Shown here: piece after piece, positions 2,541 through 38,412 of the stretch
Layout of the letters: every line of letters begins with the position of its first letter
Position numbering within the stretch: position 1 is the first letter of the stretch
DNA from: Octopus vulgaris
Taxonomy: Eukaryota
Assembly (NCBI GenBank): GCA_951406725.2
Contig: OX597823.1
Coordinates: 68,944,001-69,008,000, forward strand
Direction of reading: 5' to 3'
Length of the DNA: 64,000 bases
Position numbers and translations under genes: made by a program
The notes under the pieces: generated by a model
Database searches by the model: none
Seen by the model: the letters and a program-made list of their open reading frames with translations, nothing else
What the model was told of the DNA's origin: nothing

Positions 2541-2636
2541 TAAAACGAATCGCGCCTTCCCCGGAACCAGCTTCATCAACCGCGTCGAAGAATTACAGTT
2601 TGCACATCACCAGCAACGAAGCAACTGAAAATTCCG

Positions 2637-3197
2637 ATGAAAACAATGAATCTCCCGGAACAAAATCCAGCGGCCAACATCGACATGGCATTCCAAGCGG
2701 CGATCTCGTTAAAAATTCCACCATTCTGGACCCACGACCCGACATTGTGGTTTCACCATATAGAGGCACAGTTTGCCTCTCACAGAATATTGAGCGATGC
2801 GGCTCGACTTTCTCACGTTATCGGTTCTCTGTCACCAGAAATAACGAACGTAATACGTGACCTTATCATGGCACCACCCGGTTCTGTTTCATATGAAGTT
2901 TTTAAAACCACGTTAATAAACAGAACCTCAGAATCCCAACAAAAAAGACTTCACCAGCTTCTGATATCGGAAGAATTGGGTGACAAAACGCCGTCCCAGC
3001 TTCTTCGGAGAATGAAACAGCTTCTCGGAGATGAGACGCTCCCAGAAAAAATTTTCAAGCAACTTTTTCTCCAGTGTCTGCCCTCCAATACCCAGGTTGT
3101 TCTCGCGTCTACCAGAGAAAACACATCCCTTGAAGAACTGGTGGAGCTAGCTGACAAAATAGCCGAAGTACCGCACAGATATCCAACTATATATTAG
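2637..3197 (+). CDS. gag: Gypsy gag N-terminal part; element truncated, no pol
   Basis: 186-aa ORF with IPPFWTHDPTLWFHHIEAQF, LGDKTPSQLLRRM and LEELVELADKI, typical of metazoan Gypsy gag. Lies downstream of the LTR and PBS. Confidence 0.85.
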   Translation: MKTMNLPEQNPAANIDMAFQAAISLKIPPFWTHDPTLWFHHIEAQFASHRILSDAARLSHVIGSLSPEITNVIRDLIMAPPGSVSYEVFKTTLINRTSESQQKRLHQLLISEELGDKTPSQLLRRMKQLLGDETLPEKIFKQLFLQCLPSNTQVVLASTRENTSLEELVELADKIAEVPHRYPTIY

Positions 3198-5327: not shown

Positions 5328-5633
5328 AATAGATTTTGCCTGAAGCATTGTCGTAAATATATAAATATTTTTAAAATTAAAGCCAAAACAATGCATGTTT
5401 TAAGAAATACTTTTACTTTGTATTTCAATATTTTGAGGTTAGGACCCCTTCTTCAGGAAACCTTTAGAGAAATGATGTGAGCTGGCTTCTCTGTTTTCAT
5501 CTTGTATAACTTTTCCAAAGATTTCCTGAGCAAGGGATCTTGACCCCAAAATTTGAAATACAAGGAAAATGTACAAAAGATCAACATGTATTATTTCTTG
5601 TAACTTGCATAATTTTGGCTTTAAAATAAGTTT
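5328..5633. mobile_element. Inverted-repeat insertion (PLE pLTR-like) with two decayed hammerhead motifs and an ~18-bp TSD
   Basis: Arms ~5375-5460 and ~5522-5625 are reverse complements. The left arm (minus) reads TTTC-CTGAAGA-AGGGG..CCTC-AAAATATT-GAAA. Flanks AAAAACACTTAAAAGACT (5310-5327) and AAAAACAATTAAAAGACT (5634-5651). Confidence 0.6.
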
Positions 5634-5652
5634 AAAAACAATTAAAAGACTG

Positions 5653-6076
5653 AGCAGTTGTATACTGTCAACTTAAGGTGACAGTCCCATTGAGGGAATT
5701 TACACCACCGATGTTTAGCGCTAGGAAGCATCAACGCTTCCTGTCGGCCTTGACACTGAAAATATATATGTTTACGAAGGCTAGACAGGTATCTTCAGCT
5801 AGCAGGCCATGCTACTCCAGACTGATGACGAGCAAGACTTAGAAACATGTCTCTGGATGCAGGACGAACTGTTGGGGGTGCTTGTCTCCCCTTTGTAAAC
5901 ATAAGGACACAGGAAATGTGTCAAGGCTGACAGGAAGCGTTGATGCTTCCTATGGCTAAACAGCGGTGGTGTAATTCCCTCTATAGGACTGTCATGTTAA
6001 GTTGACAGTATACAACTGCTCTATCGTTCCATCACCGCTCATATCTCTCTGAGATATTTAGAAATTTCATATTTCT
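5653..6076 (+). mobile_element. Non-coding fold-back element with apical hammerhead ribozyme (retrozyme-like or PLE-derived), 13-bp TSD
   Basis: TSD AATTAAAAGACTG at 5640-5652 and 6077-6089. ~105-bp inverted arms 5652-5756 and 5918-6021, inner G-U-rich helices, hammerhead at 5816-5857. Confidence 0.8.
5816..5857 (+). ncRNA. Minimal type-I hammerhead ribozyme, intact core
   Basis: TCCAGA-CTGATGA-CGAGCAAGACTTA-GAAA-CATG-TC-TCTGGA: perfect 6-bp helix I, CUGAUGA and GAAA cores, palindromic ACATGT in place of helix III, GUC cleavage triplet ending at 5851. Confidence 0.85.
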
Positions 6077-7005
6077 AATTAAAAGACTGGTGAGGAGAAA
6101 AGCCTCTTCATGGACAGTATGTATTCTGAAACAAAAATGACGATGTAAACTCATCAGTGGCTGAAGACTTCAGGAGTAAATTCAGTAACAGAAGAATTTA
6201 TACTCGCAGGAATCACCCCAACACATCATCTCCCTATTACTCATCTATCAACAGGTTTTATTATTCTAAAGCTCTCCAACCTTTCTGGAACTTCCACTTA
6301 TCACTTCCTCCAGCTTGAGCCACTTTAATGCCTAATCCCCATATTTGTCATTGAACAATCTTCCTTGAATAGTGGACATCCTTGTCCACCATTCACTATA
6401 TTCACTTTTTCCTTGATCTCTAACAATCTATTACTCTTTCACACACTCTTGTGAAACAACCACTCTTCATGGCCTTCTGCCCCCTCTTCTTTCTCCTATT
6501 CACCTGTTTGACATTTTGTCACCGTCTTTATCTCTCTATCCAGCTTCTCCCATTTACCAAATCCACTATAGTAGAAGACACTTGCCCAAGGTGCCACACA
6601 GTGGGACTGAACCCAGAACCATGTGATTCGTAAGCAAGCTGCTTACCACACAGTCATAAATAATGCAGGGTAACCATATATAACCTCTGCAGCAAAGCAT
6701 CATTTCCTGTCCCTCTATCATCTTTCAGAGTTTCAAACTCGACACAAAGCCATCTCCTTCAATACAGCATACGCTCTCAGTTGAGGATTTCTTCTTGAGT
6801 TGGCAACCTTACAAATGCCAGTGCCAGAAGAAAGCACCCTGTACACTCTATAAAGTGAGTGGTATTTGGAAAGGTATCCAGCTGTGGAAAGCTTTCAAAA
6901 GCAGTAATTTGAGCTAGATGTTGTCATCACACTTGTCACATCTTGTCAAACCATTCAACCAACCAGTATGGAATGTGTATGTTAAATGATGATGTAATGA
7001 CGATA

Positions 7006-10159: not shown

Positions 10160-11620
10160 ACTCTAATAGAGCAAGAAGATGGAAAGAGTCCATGTTGCCA
10201 CTAATGTAGCTAAGAATATACTACACTTCCAAGAACTGTATGGAGTTTGTTGGGGTCATAGCTTGTAAGGGATTGTGGTTCATTTCTAATTTATTAGTCT
10301 TTTTATCAACAACAAAATCTAAGACTAGAGGACTGTGTCTGTTTAGAATGGAAGGCAAGAGTGTGTTGACAGCACCTAGCTGTGTATGGTCATAAATATT
10401 GTCAAGATATGTTTTAGGAGTAGTATAAAGTAACTGTCTATATAGGAGGCTGGATAGGGGAAGACCCCAAATCAAGATGTTAATTACCAGTTAAAGGGAC
10501 AAGATGCTAATAAAACCAATGATGTTAATACAGAGGAAATTATCATGGGGTACTATGGGTAATTGTTTATAAAACAATATTGTTTTGTTGTATAAAGATA
10601 AAAATTTAAGATTATTAATAATGATATTATAACCAAAATAGATAAAATGTGTATATATACCAATTTTCAACATTAGAAAGGGAAGGTTACATAGAATTAG
10701 TTTAATATTCATTCATGTACTTAATTATTTACTTATTAGGTGGTTTCTATAAAGACTGCTCTTGGTATTTACTTATGGAATAATGGGACGATAAATCATG
10801 CTATCTACAGTTGAAGGGAATGTTATACCAGATGGAGTCCTTATTTTCAGAATTATGGCATATGTAAGGGTGGAATCTACCTGCTCTCTCAACGCCTCTC
10901 AAAATCGTGACTTGATTATTAGGTATGTCTCTATTACCAGTATTTTTCTTATCCTTATAGTGTGGAGTAACCTGCCCATTCTCCTCACTACCTTTATTAT
11001 CTAAACTAAAATTCCTACTTGTTATAGCATTTAATTTCCTGTTGTTGCTTATTTTTTTATTTAAACTGATGGGTTTGTTGAATGCTTTTCTAATTGGTAT
11101 GTTTTCCCAGCCAAGCAATCTTGTAATCCTCCTATCCCTTAAAATCTCATTATTTCCACTATTATCAGGTGTTATACTTTCAGGATTAATAAAAGTAATT
11201 TCATGGTCATATCCTGCCTTAGATAAAGCGAAGTTGTAGTGGTGGGAATGAGTATTATAAATGTCTTTATTAGCTGATAATTTTGTAATTCTCTTAGAAA
11301 TAATTTTGACCACTGGTTTGAACACATTAGTGGGGTGATTTGATAATTTGTTCGCATAGCTCATAACTTAAACTGGTTTCCTATACGGGTGGTATAATCC
11401 TGAGTTAATCTCTAATGTAGTATCAAAAAATTTTCCACCTTTGTGCCATATTCAAACGTTGAAGCTTTTAAAAAATTTTCTAACTCTTTTCCTCATTCTT
11501 TCTATGACTGATTTATTGTCGCTAGGGATTATAAATAGAGTATCATCTCTATATAATCCTCCCTGCAATTCAGGGATTTAATTATTGAGGCACATCTTTT
11601 ATACATATAGTTTGAATTTA
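10160..11620 (-). mobile_element. Penelope-like element remnant (RT C-terminal half, linker, decayed GIY-YIG)
   Basis: YRDD at ~11535-11550, then YHPYRKP, YANKLSNHP..ISKRITKLS..YNFALSKAGY and IWYNIPF, motifs characteristic of PLE RTs. Frameshifted. Confidence 0.85.
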
Positions 11621-18222: not shown

Positions 18223-19588
18223 CAAACAGCTGGAAACACTATTAAAGACAGTTCATGGATTTACCAAAGAAATAGAGATGAAATTTGGATTAGAAAAATG
18301 CGCCAAAGTAACCATGAAAAGAGGAAAACTAGTTAAGAGTAGCAACATCACACTAGATAAAACCAATGAAATAAAAGAATTAGACCAAAGCCAAACTTAC
18401 AAATACTTAGGAATTCCATGAACTAGATAAGACACAACACACACAAATGAAAGAGAAAATAAAAAAAGAATATTATAGACAAGTTAGATCAGTACTAAAA
18501 ACAGAGCTCAATGCTAAAAACAAGATAATAGGCATTAAACTTTAGCTGTCCCAGTCATAAGTTACAGCTACAATATCCTTAACTGACAAATACAAACAAG
18601 AAATCATAACACCTAATAAATATGAAGAAGAAGAAGAAGAAGAAGATGAAGAAACAACAAAAGCTATAAAACAAATGAAATCCAAACTAAAAATAGAACA
18701 GCAACGAACCATGATAAAACGATGGCAAGAAAAGCCCCTTCATGGTAAATACTGGACTAAACTAAACGCAAAAGAAATAGACAAAGAAAAATCCCAGCAA
18801 TGGTTGAGAAGCTCAGGACTCAAAGCAGAAACAGAGGGATTTTTAATTGCAGCACAAGACCAAAGCCTCCCCACCAGACATTACCAAAAACATGTAATGA
18901 AAAGAAATATAACAAGTAACTGCAGAATATGTGGAGATGGACAAGAAACAATAAATCATATTATCTCTAGCTGCCCAGTCCTGGCTAAGAAGGAATATAT
19001 TCACAGACATGACAGAATTGGAACCTACATACATTGGAAGCTATGCCAACATTATGGAATAACAACAGAAAAAAGATGGTATAGGCACACACCAGAAAAG
19101 GTCACAGAAAACGAGAAAGAAACCATACTCTGGGATATGCCGATACACACAGATAAAGAAATTAAGGCCAACAGACCAGATATAGTTGTTAGAGATCATG
19201 AAGAAAAAAATGCTTTCTAATTGATGTATCAATACCGGCAGATGACAACATGTCTCTAAAAGAAATGGAGAAACTCTCAAAATACAAAGACCTGGAAATA
19301 GAGGTAACCAGAATGTGGAATCTAAAAACAGAAACAATTCCTATCATAGTAGGTGCATTAGGCATGATAAAAAAATATTCAGACAAATACATAACAAAAA
19401 CACCAGGACTTACAAACACATATAACATACAGAAAATTGCACTACTAGGCACTGCACACATCCTACGCAGAACACTTTCCATATAATAACCATCAGAGCA
19501 TCACAACAAATCACAGCACATACCCAAGTCACACAGAGCTGCGCTCGGTAGTGAAGTGAAAGCACGCTATAAAAATGAAACTACTGAA
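18221..19588 (+). mobile_element. R4/Dong-like family B, 5'-truncated, internally deleted
   Basis: MKFGLEKCAK and YKYLG (RT end), CRICGDGQETINHIISSC (CCHC), RHD, NRPDI and KYKDLE (RLE). Flanked by (TAA)n and (CAA/TAA)n. Confidence 0.9.
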
Positions 19589-36264: not shown

Positions 36265-38412
36265 CAAACCTAGCACCAGAACAACTCTGGATCCCAATAA
36301 CATAAACAACAAACTCAGCACTAGAACAACTCAGGACACCTATAACAACTGAAAAGGTCACCCAGGCACTGCAAAATCTAAGCAACTGGAAGGCACCCTG
36401 GTACGATAAGATCAACTTCTGGTTAAAATATCTGACAGGAACACAAAAAGCTGGCTGAGAAATTTAATGACACACTAGCAGACCCAGAGACAATGCCTGA
36501 ATGGCTCATGGAAGGGAAAACTATCCTAATTCCCAAATCCACTGAAACAATAGACCCACAAAATTACAGACCAATAACTTATCTCCCTACAATTTACAAA
36601 GTCTTTACTGCAATAATATCATAGAGAATGAGCAAGTATCTGGTAGAAAACAACCTATTTCCAGTAGAGTAGAAGAGATGCTGTAAAGATCAACTAATGA
36701 TCAATAAAGCCATAGCTGAAGACAGCTGCAGGAAGAAGAAGGATTTAAGTATGGCCTGGATTGATTACCGAAAGGCTTTTGATAGTATTCCCCACACATG
36801 GATCCTAGAAACACTAGCCATGAACAAGGTTGCACCAATACTCATAAAATATATAACACATTCCATGAATAAATGGCAGACAGTGCTACAGCTCCAGACA
36901 AGAGAGGGGTTCATAAGAATCAAAGCCATCCCCATTAGAAGAGGAATATTCCAGGGAGACATGCTCCCTCCACTCCTTTTCTGTTTGGCACTGACACGTT
37001 TATCTGACATGCTATACAGAACTGGATGTGGATACAACTATTATGGCAAAACAATCAGCCAACTCTTATATATGGATGACTTGAAACTGTATGCTACAAA
37101 TGATAAACACTTGGAAACATTACTATAGACAGTACATGGATTTACCAAGGAAATAAACATGAAATTTGGCTTAGAAAAATATGCCAAAGCAATCTTGAAA
37201 AGAGAAAAACTAGTTAAGAGTAGCAACATCACACTAGATAAAGCAAATGAAATAAGAGAATTAAACCAAAGCTAGACATACAAATACTTAGGAATCAATG
37301 AACTAGATACGATAAGCCACACACAAATGAAAGAGAAAATAGAAAGAAAAGAATACTATAGATGAGTTAGATTAATACCAAAAACAGCACTCAATACATA
37401 AAACAAGATAATACATATCAACAGTTATCAAGATAGGTATCAACAAGTACAAACAAACAATCATACTACCTAACAAATATGAAGAAGAAACAACAAAAGC
37501 TATAAAATAATTGAAAACCTAACTAAAACTAGAACAGAAATGGTCCATGATAAGACGATGGCAAATACTGGGCTAAACTAAATGCAAAAGAAATAGAGAA
37601 AATCCCAGCAATGGTTGAGAAGCTCAGGACTCTAAGCAGAGACTGAAAGATTTTTAATTGCAGCACAAGACCAAAGTCTCCCCACCAGAAATTACCAAAA
37701 ATATATAATGAAAAGAAACATAACAAGTAACTGCAGAATATGTAAAGATGGACAAGAAACAATAAATCATATTATCTCTGGCTGCCCAGTCCTGGCTAAG
37801 AAGGAATATATTCACGGACACGACAGAGTTGGGGCCTACATACACTGGGAGCTATGCCAACACTATGGAATAACAAAGAAAAAAGATGGTATTGGCACAG
37901 GCCAGAAAAGGTCACAGAAAATGAGAAAGCAACCATACTCTGGGATATGCTAATACACACAGATAAAGAAATTAAGGCCAATAGGCCAGATATAGTTGTC
38001 AGAGATCATGAAGAAAAATAATGTTTTCTGATGGATGTATCAATACCAGCAGATGACAACGTTTCTCTAAAAGAAATGGAAAAACTTTCAAAATACAAAG
38101 ACTTGGAAATAGTGGTAACTCGAATGTGGAATCTAAAAACAGAAACAATTCCTATCATAGTAGGTGCATTAGGTATGATAAAAAAATATTCAGACAAATA
38201 CATAACAAAAACACCAGGACTTACAAATATATATAACATACAGAAAATGGCACTACTGGGCACTGCACACATCCTACGCAAAACACTTTCAATACAGTAA
38301 CCATAAGAGCATCACAGCAAACCACGGCACATACCCACGGCACATACCCAAGGCACACAGAGCTGCACTCGGTAATGAAGTGAAAGCACGCTATAAAAAT
38401 AAAACTACTGAA
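36262..38412 (+). mobile_element. R4/Dong-like family B with RT domain, decayed, in (TAA)n
   Basis: NYRPITYLP, WIDYRKAFDSIPH, RRGIFQGD, LLYMDDLKLYA, CCHC knuckle and RLE. The 3' UTR matches the 18221-19588 copy. Confidence 0.92.

Follow-up and report, generated by a model that had tools for sequence, protein, structure and literature searches.

A likely novel non-LTR retrozyme family of Octopus vulgaris, with a hammerhead-capped long helix and insertions of Penelope-like type

Introduction

Metazoan non-LTR retrozymes are described as elements devoid of open reading frames (ORFs), in which a type I hammerhead is carried by each 150- to 450-bp unit and units range from monomers to multimers, with a GC content under 50% and target-site duplications (TSDs) of more than 4 bp; the units of mussel and axolotl are about 350 nt (PMC7229834; bioRxiv 10.64898/2026.07.22.740005). 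Work on retrozymes involves tandem transcripts, cleavage by dimeric hammerheads and closure of the resulting monomers by tRNA ligase (PMC7229834; PMC4209133), and in Xenopus only one of nine predicted retrozymes that were assayed was found to cleave (bioRxiv 2026.07.22.740005). A 2020 review recognized no motif by which the retrozyme partner could be identified (PMC7761336), and the identity of the mover has so far been argued from hammerheads held in common, from co-occurrence and from the phylogeny of pLTRs (PMC7761336; bioRxiv 2026.07.22.740005), the latter two being those from which a 2026 preprint argues for Penelope-like elements (PLEs) as the partner (bioRxiv 2026.07.22.740005).

Insertions of PLEs are characterized by partial tandems, an adjoining inverted 5'-truncated copy and a tail of 30 to 40 bp on one end (PMC8557442; PMC3846280). 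For a PLE enzyme assayed in vitro, cleavage of both strands occurs at ATT and reverse transcription is initiated from two internal positions which bound the tail, the enzyme PAc using mainly uncut RNA (PMC11167929). Among cephalopods, a squid genome paper reports 235 hammerhead-1 matches and gives no description of families (PMC6962438).

Results and Discussion

Organization of the insertion

The window analysed here, a stretch of 64,000 nucleotides from contig OX597823.1 of O. vulgaris, harbors a 424-nt insertion which a sequence-only reading had described as a mobile, rod-shaped RNA element. We propose, with a probability of roughly 0.8, that it is instead a 5'-truncated copy of a retrozyme unit of approximately 354 nt (unit 28 to 354) lying behind an inverted segment taken from the unit's own 3' portion (unit 197 to 300), likely formed in one event by PLE reverse transcriptase (RT) and endonuclease acting in trans. 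Its features are as follows.

5640-5652, plus strand: left TSD, 13 bp
5653-5756, minus strand: inverted, 5'-truncated piece of the unit's 3' part (unit 197-300), specific to this copy, starting at the inner terminus and without tail
5754-6076, plus strand: 5'-truncated monomer of the ~354-nt putative retrozyme unit (unit 28 to the 3' end)
5767-5821, plus strand: long helix, 5' side (an extended hammerhead stem I of about 48 pairs, five to six of them G-U)
5816-5857, plus strand: type I hammerhead motif, with a cut predicted after C5851
5816-5821 and 5852-5857, plus strand: hammerhead stem I
5822-5828, plus strand: hammerhead core
5830-5832 and 5838-5840, plus strand: hammerhead stem II
5842-5845, plus strand: GAAA of the hammerhead
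5845-5850, plus strand: palindrome of the hammerhead
5852-5903, plus strand: long helix, 3' side
5906-6021, plus strand: 3' domain of the unit, predicted to form short hairpins in the free monomer and paired with the inverted arm in the window copy
6022-6076, plus strand: PLE-type tail, delimited by the two 3' termini of the family and containing two short hairpins (6041-6057 and 6060-6076)
6077-6089, plus strand: right TSD, the initial bases of which are also the unit's own next bases

The two copies of the TSD, AATTAAAAGACTG, at 5640 to 5652 and 6077 to 6089 are identical at 13 of 13 positions, as had been reported from the sequence, and the long outer arms do pair as claimed, with eight mismatches over 104 aligned positions (5695-5756 with 5918-5979, 90% complementary; 5645-5700 with 5973-6028, 88%). 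Folding of 5640 to 6090 yields a minimum free energy (MFE) of -248 kcal/mol (z -23.8) for the plus strand and -225.9 (z -17.9) for the minus strand; for the inner hairpin alone (5767-5903), the values are -56.7 (z -5.0) and -37.1 (z -1.2), respectively. Both inner pairings described by the sequence-only reading are present in the plus-strand MFE structure, the 17-bp one with its six G-U pairs, five of which are family-wide; the final three pairs of the 17 stand in a register peculiar to the window copy, in which 5864, 5866 and 5868 bear private changes. Overall, the stretch from 5754 to 6076 deviates from the young-subfamily majority at 20 of 322 positions. The list of ORFs in the window contains none of 150 amino acids (aa) or more across the element, and base counts give a GC content of about 43%, i.e., below 50%.

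Contigs from two of the four sequencing runs compared span both junctions of the insertion, which is therefore common to at least one differently labelled organism; no empty site was seen among the run contigs compared with it, and none of the data sets listed as containing it is an RNA record. Just upstream, at 5377 to 5624, nested inverted repeats (5377-5409/5592-5624 and 5430-5476/5506-5552), with contig depth raised at 5418 to 5459, probably represent another small repeat. Retroelement fragments with DUF7041, zf-RVT and RVT_1 lie elsewhere in the window, at 2544 to 3197, 18561 to 19220 and 36673 to 37128.

The repeating unit and its relatives

Searching the 2.8-Gb genome (227 contigs) with the element returned 3,061 first-look candidates, and most of the 40 that were scored match positions 102 to 424 of the query only, the arm being absent. 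The 110 loci with matches, each with about 1.5 kb of flank, were reduced to 87 by dropping repeats of the same place; these were picked by similarity to the window copy and thus are not a random sample. What recurs is a unit of about 354 nt without an ORF, arranged head to tail and present as monomers, partial tandems and a trimer (L013/L026, 354-nt period). Across 123 loci, 57 segments reach the unit head, 45 of which follow directly on a tail, while several of the remaining 12 bear the last few bases of the tail; no unique sequence common to these loci was found upstream of the head. On account of this fixed tail-head junction and the lack of unique upstream sequence, the unit is closed head to tail.

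The last direct segment in the 87 loci ends at unit position 354 in 52, at 349 to 353 in eight and at 299 to 305 in 16, thereby defining two fixed 3' termini separated by about 52 nt. In 52 of 65 cases, TAAT or TATT follows the 3' end. TSDs of 9 to 14 bp, other than microsatellite ones, were identified at 21 of the 87 loci, and a clear TSD is missing at 58.

The same closed unit is kept in an older subfamily (68 to 77% identical), and a profile search uncovered two sister families, B and C (3,434 and 2,614 first-look candidates), with units of about 350 nt that are 64 to 69% identical over aligned bases and share the fold, tails and inversions of the window family. Family B (L142:2560-2960, minus strand; L231-L250) is young, its copies being 95 to 97% identical. 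Family C (L101:2500-2860, minus strand; L251-L270; G000:C25:8521057-8522820) is likewise young, and about five of its 352-nt units form an array. At L133:5804-5927 (minus strand) lies a tandem sequence related even more distantly to the 3' part of the unit, possibly representing a fourth family.

The window family thus has, at the sequence level, the features of non-LTR retrozymes: one type I hammerhead per unit, a unit of 150 to 450 bp, monomers to multimers, no protein coding, a GC content below 50% and TSDs longer than 4 bp. It likely constitutes a new non-LTR retrozyme family mobilized by a PLE. No description of it was found in the literature, Dfam, Repbase and article supplements lying outside the scope of that search and a prior listing there being possible.

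PLE-type insertion and the search for a partner enzyme

The insertions display the signs of PLE-type integration, namely a pair of 3' termini on either side of an optional tail, a neighboring 5'-truncated copy in inverted orientation, and partial tandems. As every insertion signature is PLE-like, the copies might be regarded as pLTR stumps, 3' ends broken off from an autonomous PLE, rather than as an independent retrozyme lineage, a reading that also draws on the choice of loci by similarity to the unit with only about 1.5 kb of flank, and on the screening of just 81 PLE loci in a 2.8-Gb genome. We consider it unlikely: the tail-head junction is fixed in 45 of 57 segments without unique sequence upstream, and the closed unit persists in the older subfamily and in both sister families, one of which holds the five-unit array.

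The 81 PLE-protein loci (40 from an RT-like query, 30 from GIY-YIG and 11 further stretches) contain no pLTR homologous to the unit, and the profile matches at these loci are separate insertions of window-family or sister repeats. The pLTR of a young Neptune-like family aligns to the unit no better than shuffled sequence does (score of 58.5, against a shuffle mean of 69). The unit itself lacks the ORF for RT plus GIY-YIG between pLTRs which an autonomous PLE would carry, while intact ORFs of this type, of 781 to 980 aa, are present in the genome.

Two young families of this kind were encountered. The first (L131-L137), with ORFs of up to 980 aa and an asparagine-rich insert between RT and GIY-YIG, harbors a hammerhead with a long stem II some 290 nt ahead of the start codon, has two termini about 120 nt apart and is inserted in (TA)n; a decayed PLE reverse transcriptase fragment related to it occurs in the window at 10801 to 11600 (minus strand). 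The second, of PLE type (L157, L162, L211 and L212), has an ORF of 781 aa, possibly with another ORF upstream, and a 3' region containing tandem repeats, and no hammerhead pattern was found near it. Pfam recognized neither the RT-like ORF of the window nor the long ORF of L132, both of which we take, by their motifs, to encode Neptune-like PLE proteins.

The hammerhead motif

The letters at 5816 to 5857 comprise CUGAUGA, GAAA, the palindrome ACAUGU and UC ahead of the predicted cut. Stem II consists of three pairs closed by a C-A mismatch, the canonical pair at its base being absent, and T5840 gives stem II of the window copy a G-U pair in place of the G-C formed by the C present at this position in 69 of 71 family segments. 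Rfam returned no hammerhead match at the gathering score or at E values up to 10, the relaxed search of the element giving only two chance matches (E of 3 to 7). The earlier description of the hammerhead as intact is right as to the presence of the motif and generous as to its state, in view of the C-A-closed three-pair stem II and T5840.

Within the 71 segments the core is nearly invariant, and the exact pattern has 626 matches genome-wide, against none for a reversed control; the minus strand of the element carries no hammerhead pattern. Helix III is palindromic across the families, as ACAUGU, ACUAGU or ACUCGAGU, the center of the palindrome in the 71 segments being CATG in 59, CTAG in 11 and another sequence in one. 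A ten-locus subfamily (L006, L017, L021, L059, L067, L112, L116, L120, L121 and L128) has a helix III that is 4 to 5 nt longer (ACAUGCAUGU or a CAUGU repeat), which might permit cleavage as a monomer.

The sister families depart from the common core. U3-A8 is a naturally occurring form of the hammerhead core, and family B carries it in 13 of 15 copies (UUGAUAA, replacing C3-G8); family C has CCGAUGA (U4C) together with the palindrome ACUCGAGU. Published work identifies C3-G8 as a swappable pair (PMC11167929) and records natural core variants such as U4C (PMC3088659).

Conservation of the inner long helix

A 48-pair structure, defined from the window copy and the alignment, was scored in the 71 segments, where 94.4% of 3,353 cells are paired. 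Two-sided changes occur at 12 pairs, against 6.3 in shuffles (0 of 500 reaching the observed value) and 7 to 10 in slid controls, such counts being inflated by relatedness. Four helix pairs covary by way of G-U intermediates (5770:5900, 5776:5894, 5778:5892 and 5805:5865) and, together with the palindrome pair, are among the 23 highest-ranking of 351 column pairs. The sixth testable pair, 5816:5857, does not covary, and subfamily structure produces covariation of equal strength between unpaired columns. Resolution of the copy tree is poor (two of 68 branches starred), and independent compensatory events are uncountable on it; RNAalifold at default settings recovers only 18 pairs from the gappy alignment, stem I not being among them.

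Comparison at greater distance is more telling. The older subfamily retains the helix while exchanging A-U for U-A at 5774:5896 and C-G for U-A at 5786:5884, the sister families fold into about 50 pairs, and the plus strand is the more stable in 66 of 68, 12 of 12, 12 of 15 and 20 of 20 copies of the four groups (110 of 115 overall). Because the helix is kept in the older subfamily and in two sister families and because of this strand preference, the selection on plus-strand RNA structure inferred by the sequence-only reading holds for the inner helix; it does not extend to the outer arms. The hammerhead-capped inner helix is, on sequence grounds, a candidate for a conserved functional structure.

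Improbable, in our estimation, is that the inner helix is instead the fossil of an old inversion, the match between its sides being maintained by template switching of the fold-back type as the RNA is reverse-transcribed and not by RNA selection. Such events do occur, L014, and in part L074, having exchanged the left side for a perfect complement of the right, and two changes from G-U to Watson-Crick pairs often travel together. Tract copying would, however, erase the G-U pairs which persist beside single swapped pairs; G-U intermediates outnumber A-C ones at three of the four covarying pairs, the helix measures about 50 pairs in all three families, and the exchange of CATG for CTAG is impossible by inversion.

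The inverted arm

Inverted segments, 51 in number, are present at 42 of the 87 loci; 29 of them start at unit 290 to 306, about 52 nt before the 3' end, and their lengths range from 32 to 303 nt. Arm pairs within one copy share 65 non-majority bases (41 comparisons) and differ at 254 of 3,377 positions, one copy's arms differing at only 1 of 111; in sister family B this comparison is less clear-cut, arms within a locus differing by 3.8%, against 2.3% between loci. Arm mismatches comprise 92 G-U and 73 A-C (P = 0.16) and so exhibit no G-U bias. An imprint of ADAR was also considered for the arms and rejected, A-to-G changes not being enriched in the genomic arms (G-U 92, A-C 73).

That the 424-nt rod is itself a mobile, viroid-shaped RNA selected for self-complementarity from end to end is highly improbable: its fold is very stable, near-full matches with similar arms occur at a few other loci (L002, L009, L011, L014 and L120) and the inversion junction of L009 lies within 2 to 3 nt of that of the window, but most of the 40 scored matches are without the arm, this combination of arm and junction recurs at no other locus among the 87, the tail of L009 sits on the opposite side, arm lengths vary in the manner that the sequence-only reading had itself named as contrary evidence, the minus strand of the element carries no hammerhead pattern, and the rod, as folded in the MFE structure, loses 41 of 41 pairs native to the 3' hairpins of the unit while keeping 50 of 50 in the long helix. 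The L009 inversion is taken as an independent event because its tail sits on the other arm. The repeating monomer is predicted by folding to be branched and not an unbranched rod; of the earlier proposal, the retrozyme-like, non-autonomous nature and PLE-type mobility are supported, and the viroid-shaped rod as mobile unit is not.

The rod is a by-product of the individual insertion, not the mobile unit, and its outer arm was likely added at this single insertion by a Penelope-type copying enzyme. The window copy is probably inert. Inverted copies of this kind could give long double-stranded RNA if transcribed.

Proposed amplification and template

By analogy with retrozyme work, tandem transcripts would fold the long helix, and two hammerheads would pair via the palindromic helix III and cut the transcript to monomers, after which the long helix (stem I) would keep both cut ends close to each other, allowing closure of the circle by a host ligase. 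A PLE enzyme would nick both strands of AT-rich DNA, and reverse transcription would begin internally at two sites, corresponding to the two termini; one product would become the direct copy with its tail and the other the inverted arm, the two being joined by microhomology.

Insert ends fall elsewhere than at the cut site, where one of 39 copies starts and which 18 of 39 read through, so that a linear hammerhead-cut monomer is disfavored as the main template and an uncut linear RNA or a circle is indicated; internal initiation would permit either. Stalling of the RT at the long helix was examined separately: 5' ends per 54-nt bin number 9 of 39, 12 of 30, 7 of 18 and 7 of 11 at risk, with no special peak, and stalling was rejected. 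The circle model is tempered by the observation that PAc used mainly uncut RNA in vitro (PMC11167929).

A broader scheme is offered tentatively, and we would sooner expect it to fail than to hold. At least three circular retrozyme families would form a long-lived clan, the circles of which would be copied directly by PLE RT with internal initiation at two sites; the stem I of about 50 pairs, laced with G-U, would clamp the cut ends for ligation and prop up hammerheads in which stem II is weak and the core is unusual (U3-A8 in B, C4 in C). If true, internal PLE priming would be tied to circular templates and a partner mechanism for retrozymes would be named. The clan in any case supplies natural structure variants for cleavage tests.

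Comparison with known systems

Viroids and HDV-like rod-shaped circular RNAs are small, strongly self-pairing and hammerhead-bearing, and the window family resembles them in all three respects; it differs in that its unit is predicted to be branched, its ribozyme is found on one strand only and it spreads via insertions of genomic DNA.

The window motif shares with the minimal PLE hammerheads a small palindromic helix III and predicted action as a dimer (PMC4209133). Those ribozymes have a helix II of 7 to 8 bp and a helix I of 4 to 5 bp (PMC4209133), proportions which the window family reverses, its helix II being short (three to four pairs) and its helix I long, and, unlike them, it has no G10.1-C11.1 pair immediately before GAAA (PMC4209133).

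With the endonuclease-bearing PLEs, the family has in common partial tandems, an inverted 5'-truncated neighbor, an optional tail on one end, AT-rich targets and TSDs of about 9 to 13 bp (PMC3846280; PMC8557442; PMC11167929). It differs in having no RT or GIY-YIG ORF, a tail of about 52 nt rather than 30 to 40, and a unit closed head to tail.

In relation to metazoan non-LTR retrozymes, for which cleavage and circles have been demonstrated (PMC7229834; bioRxiv 10.64898/2026.07.22.740005), the window family represents a new sequence family with an unusually long stem I (about 48 pairs). Its PLE tail and 5' inversions are features which the cited portions of these sources do not describe for retrozymes (PMC7229834; bioRxiv 10.64898/2026.07.22.740005). 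PLE-diagnostic ends on an ORF-less retrozyme amount to direct genomic evidence for a PLE-retrozyme partnership, the tail and head-to-head inversion across an ORF-less clan being a more direct footprint than the arguments put forward earlier.
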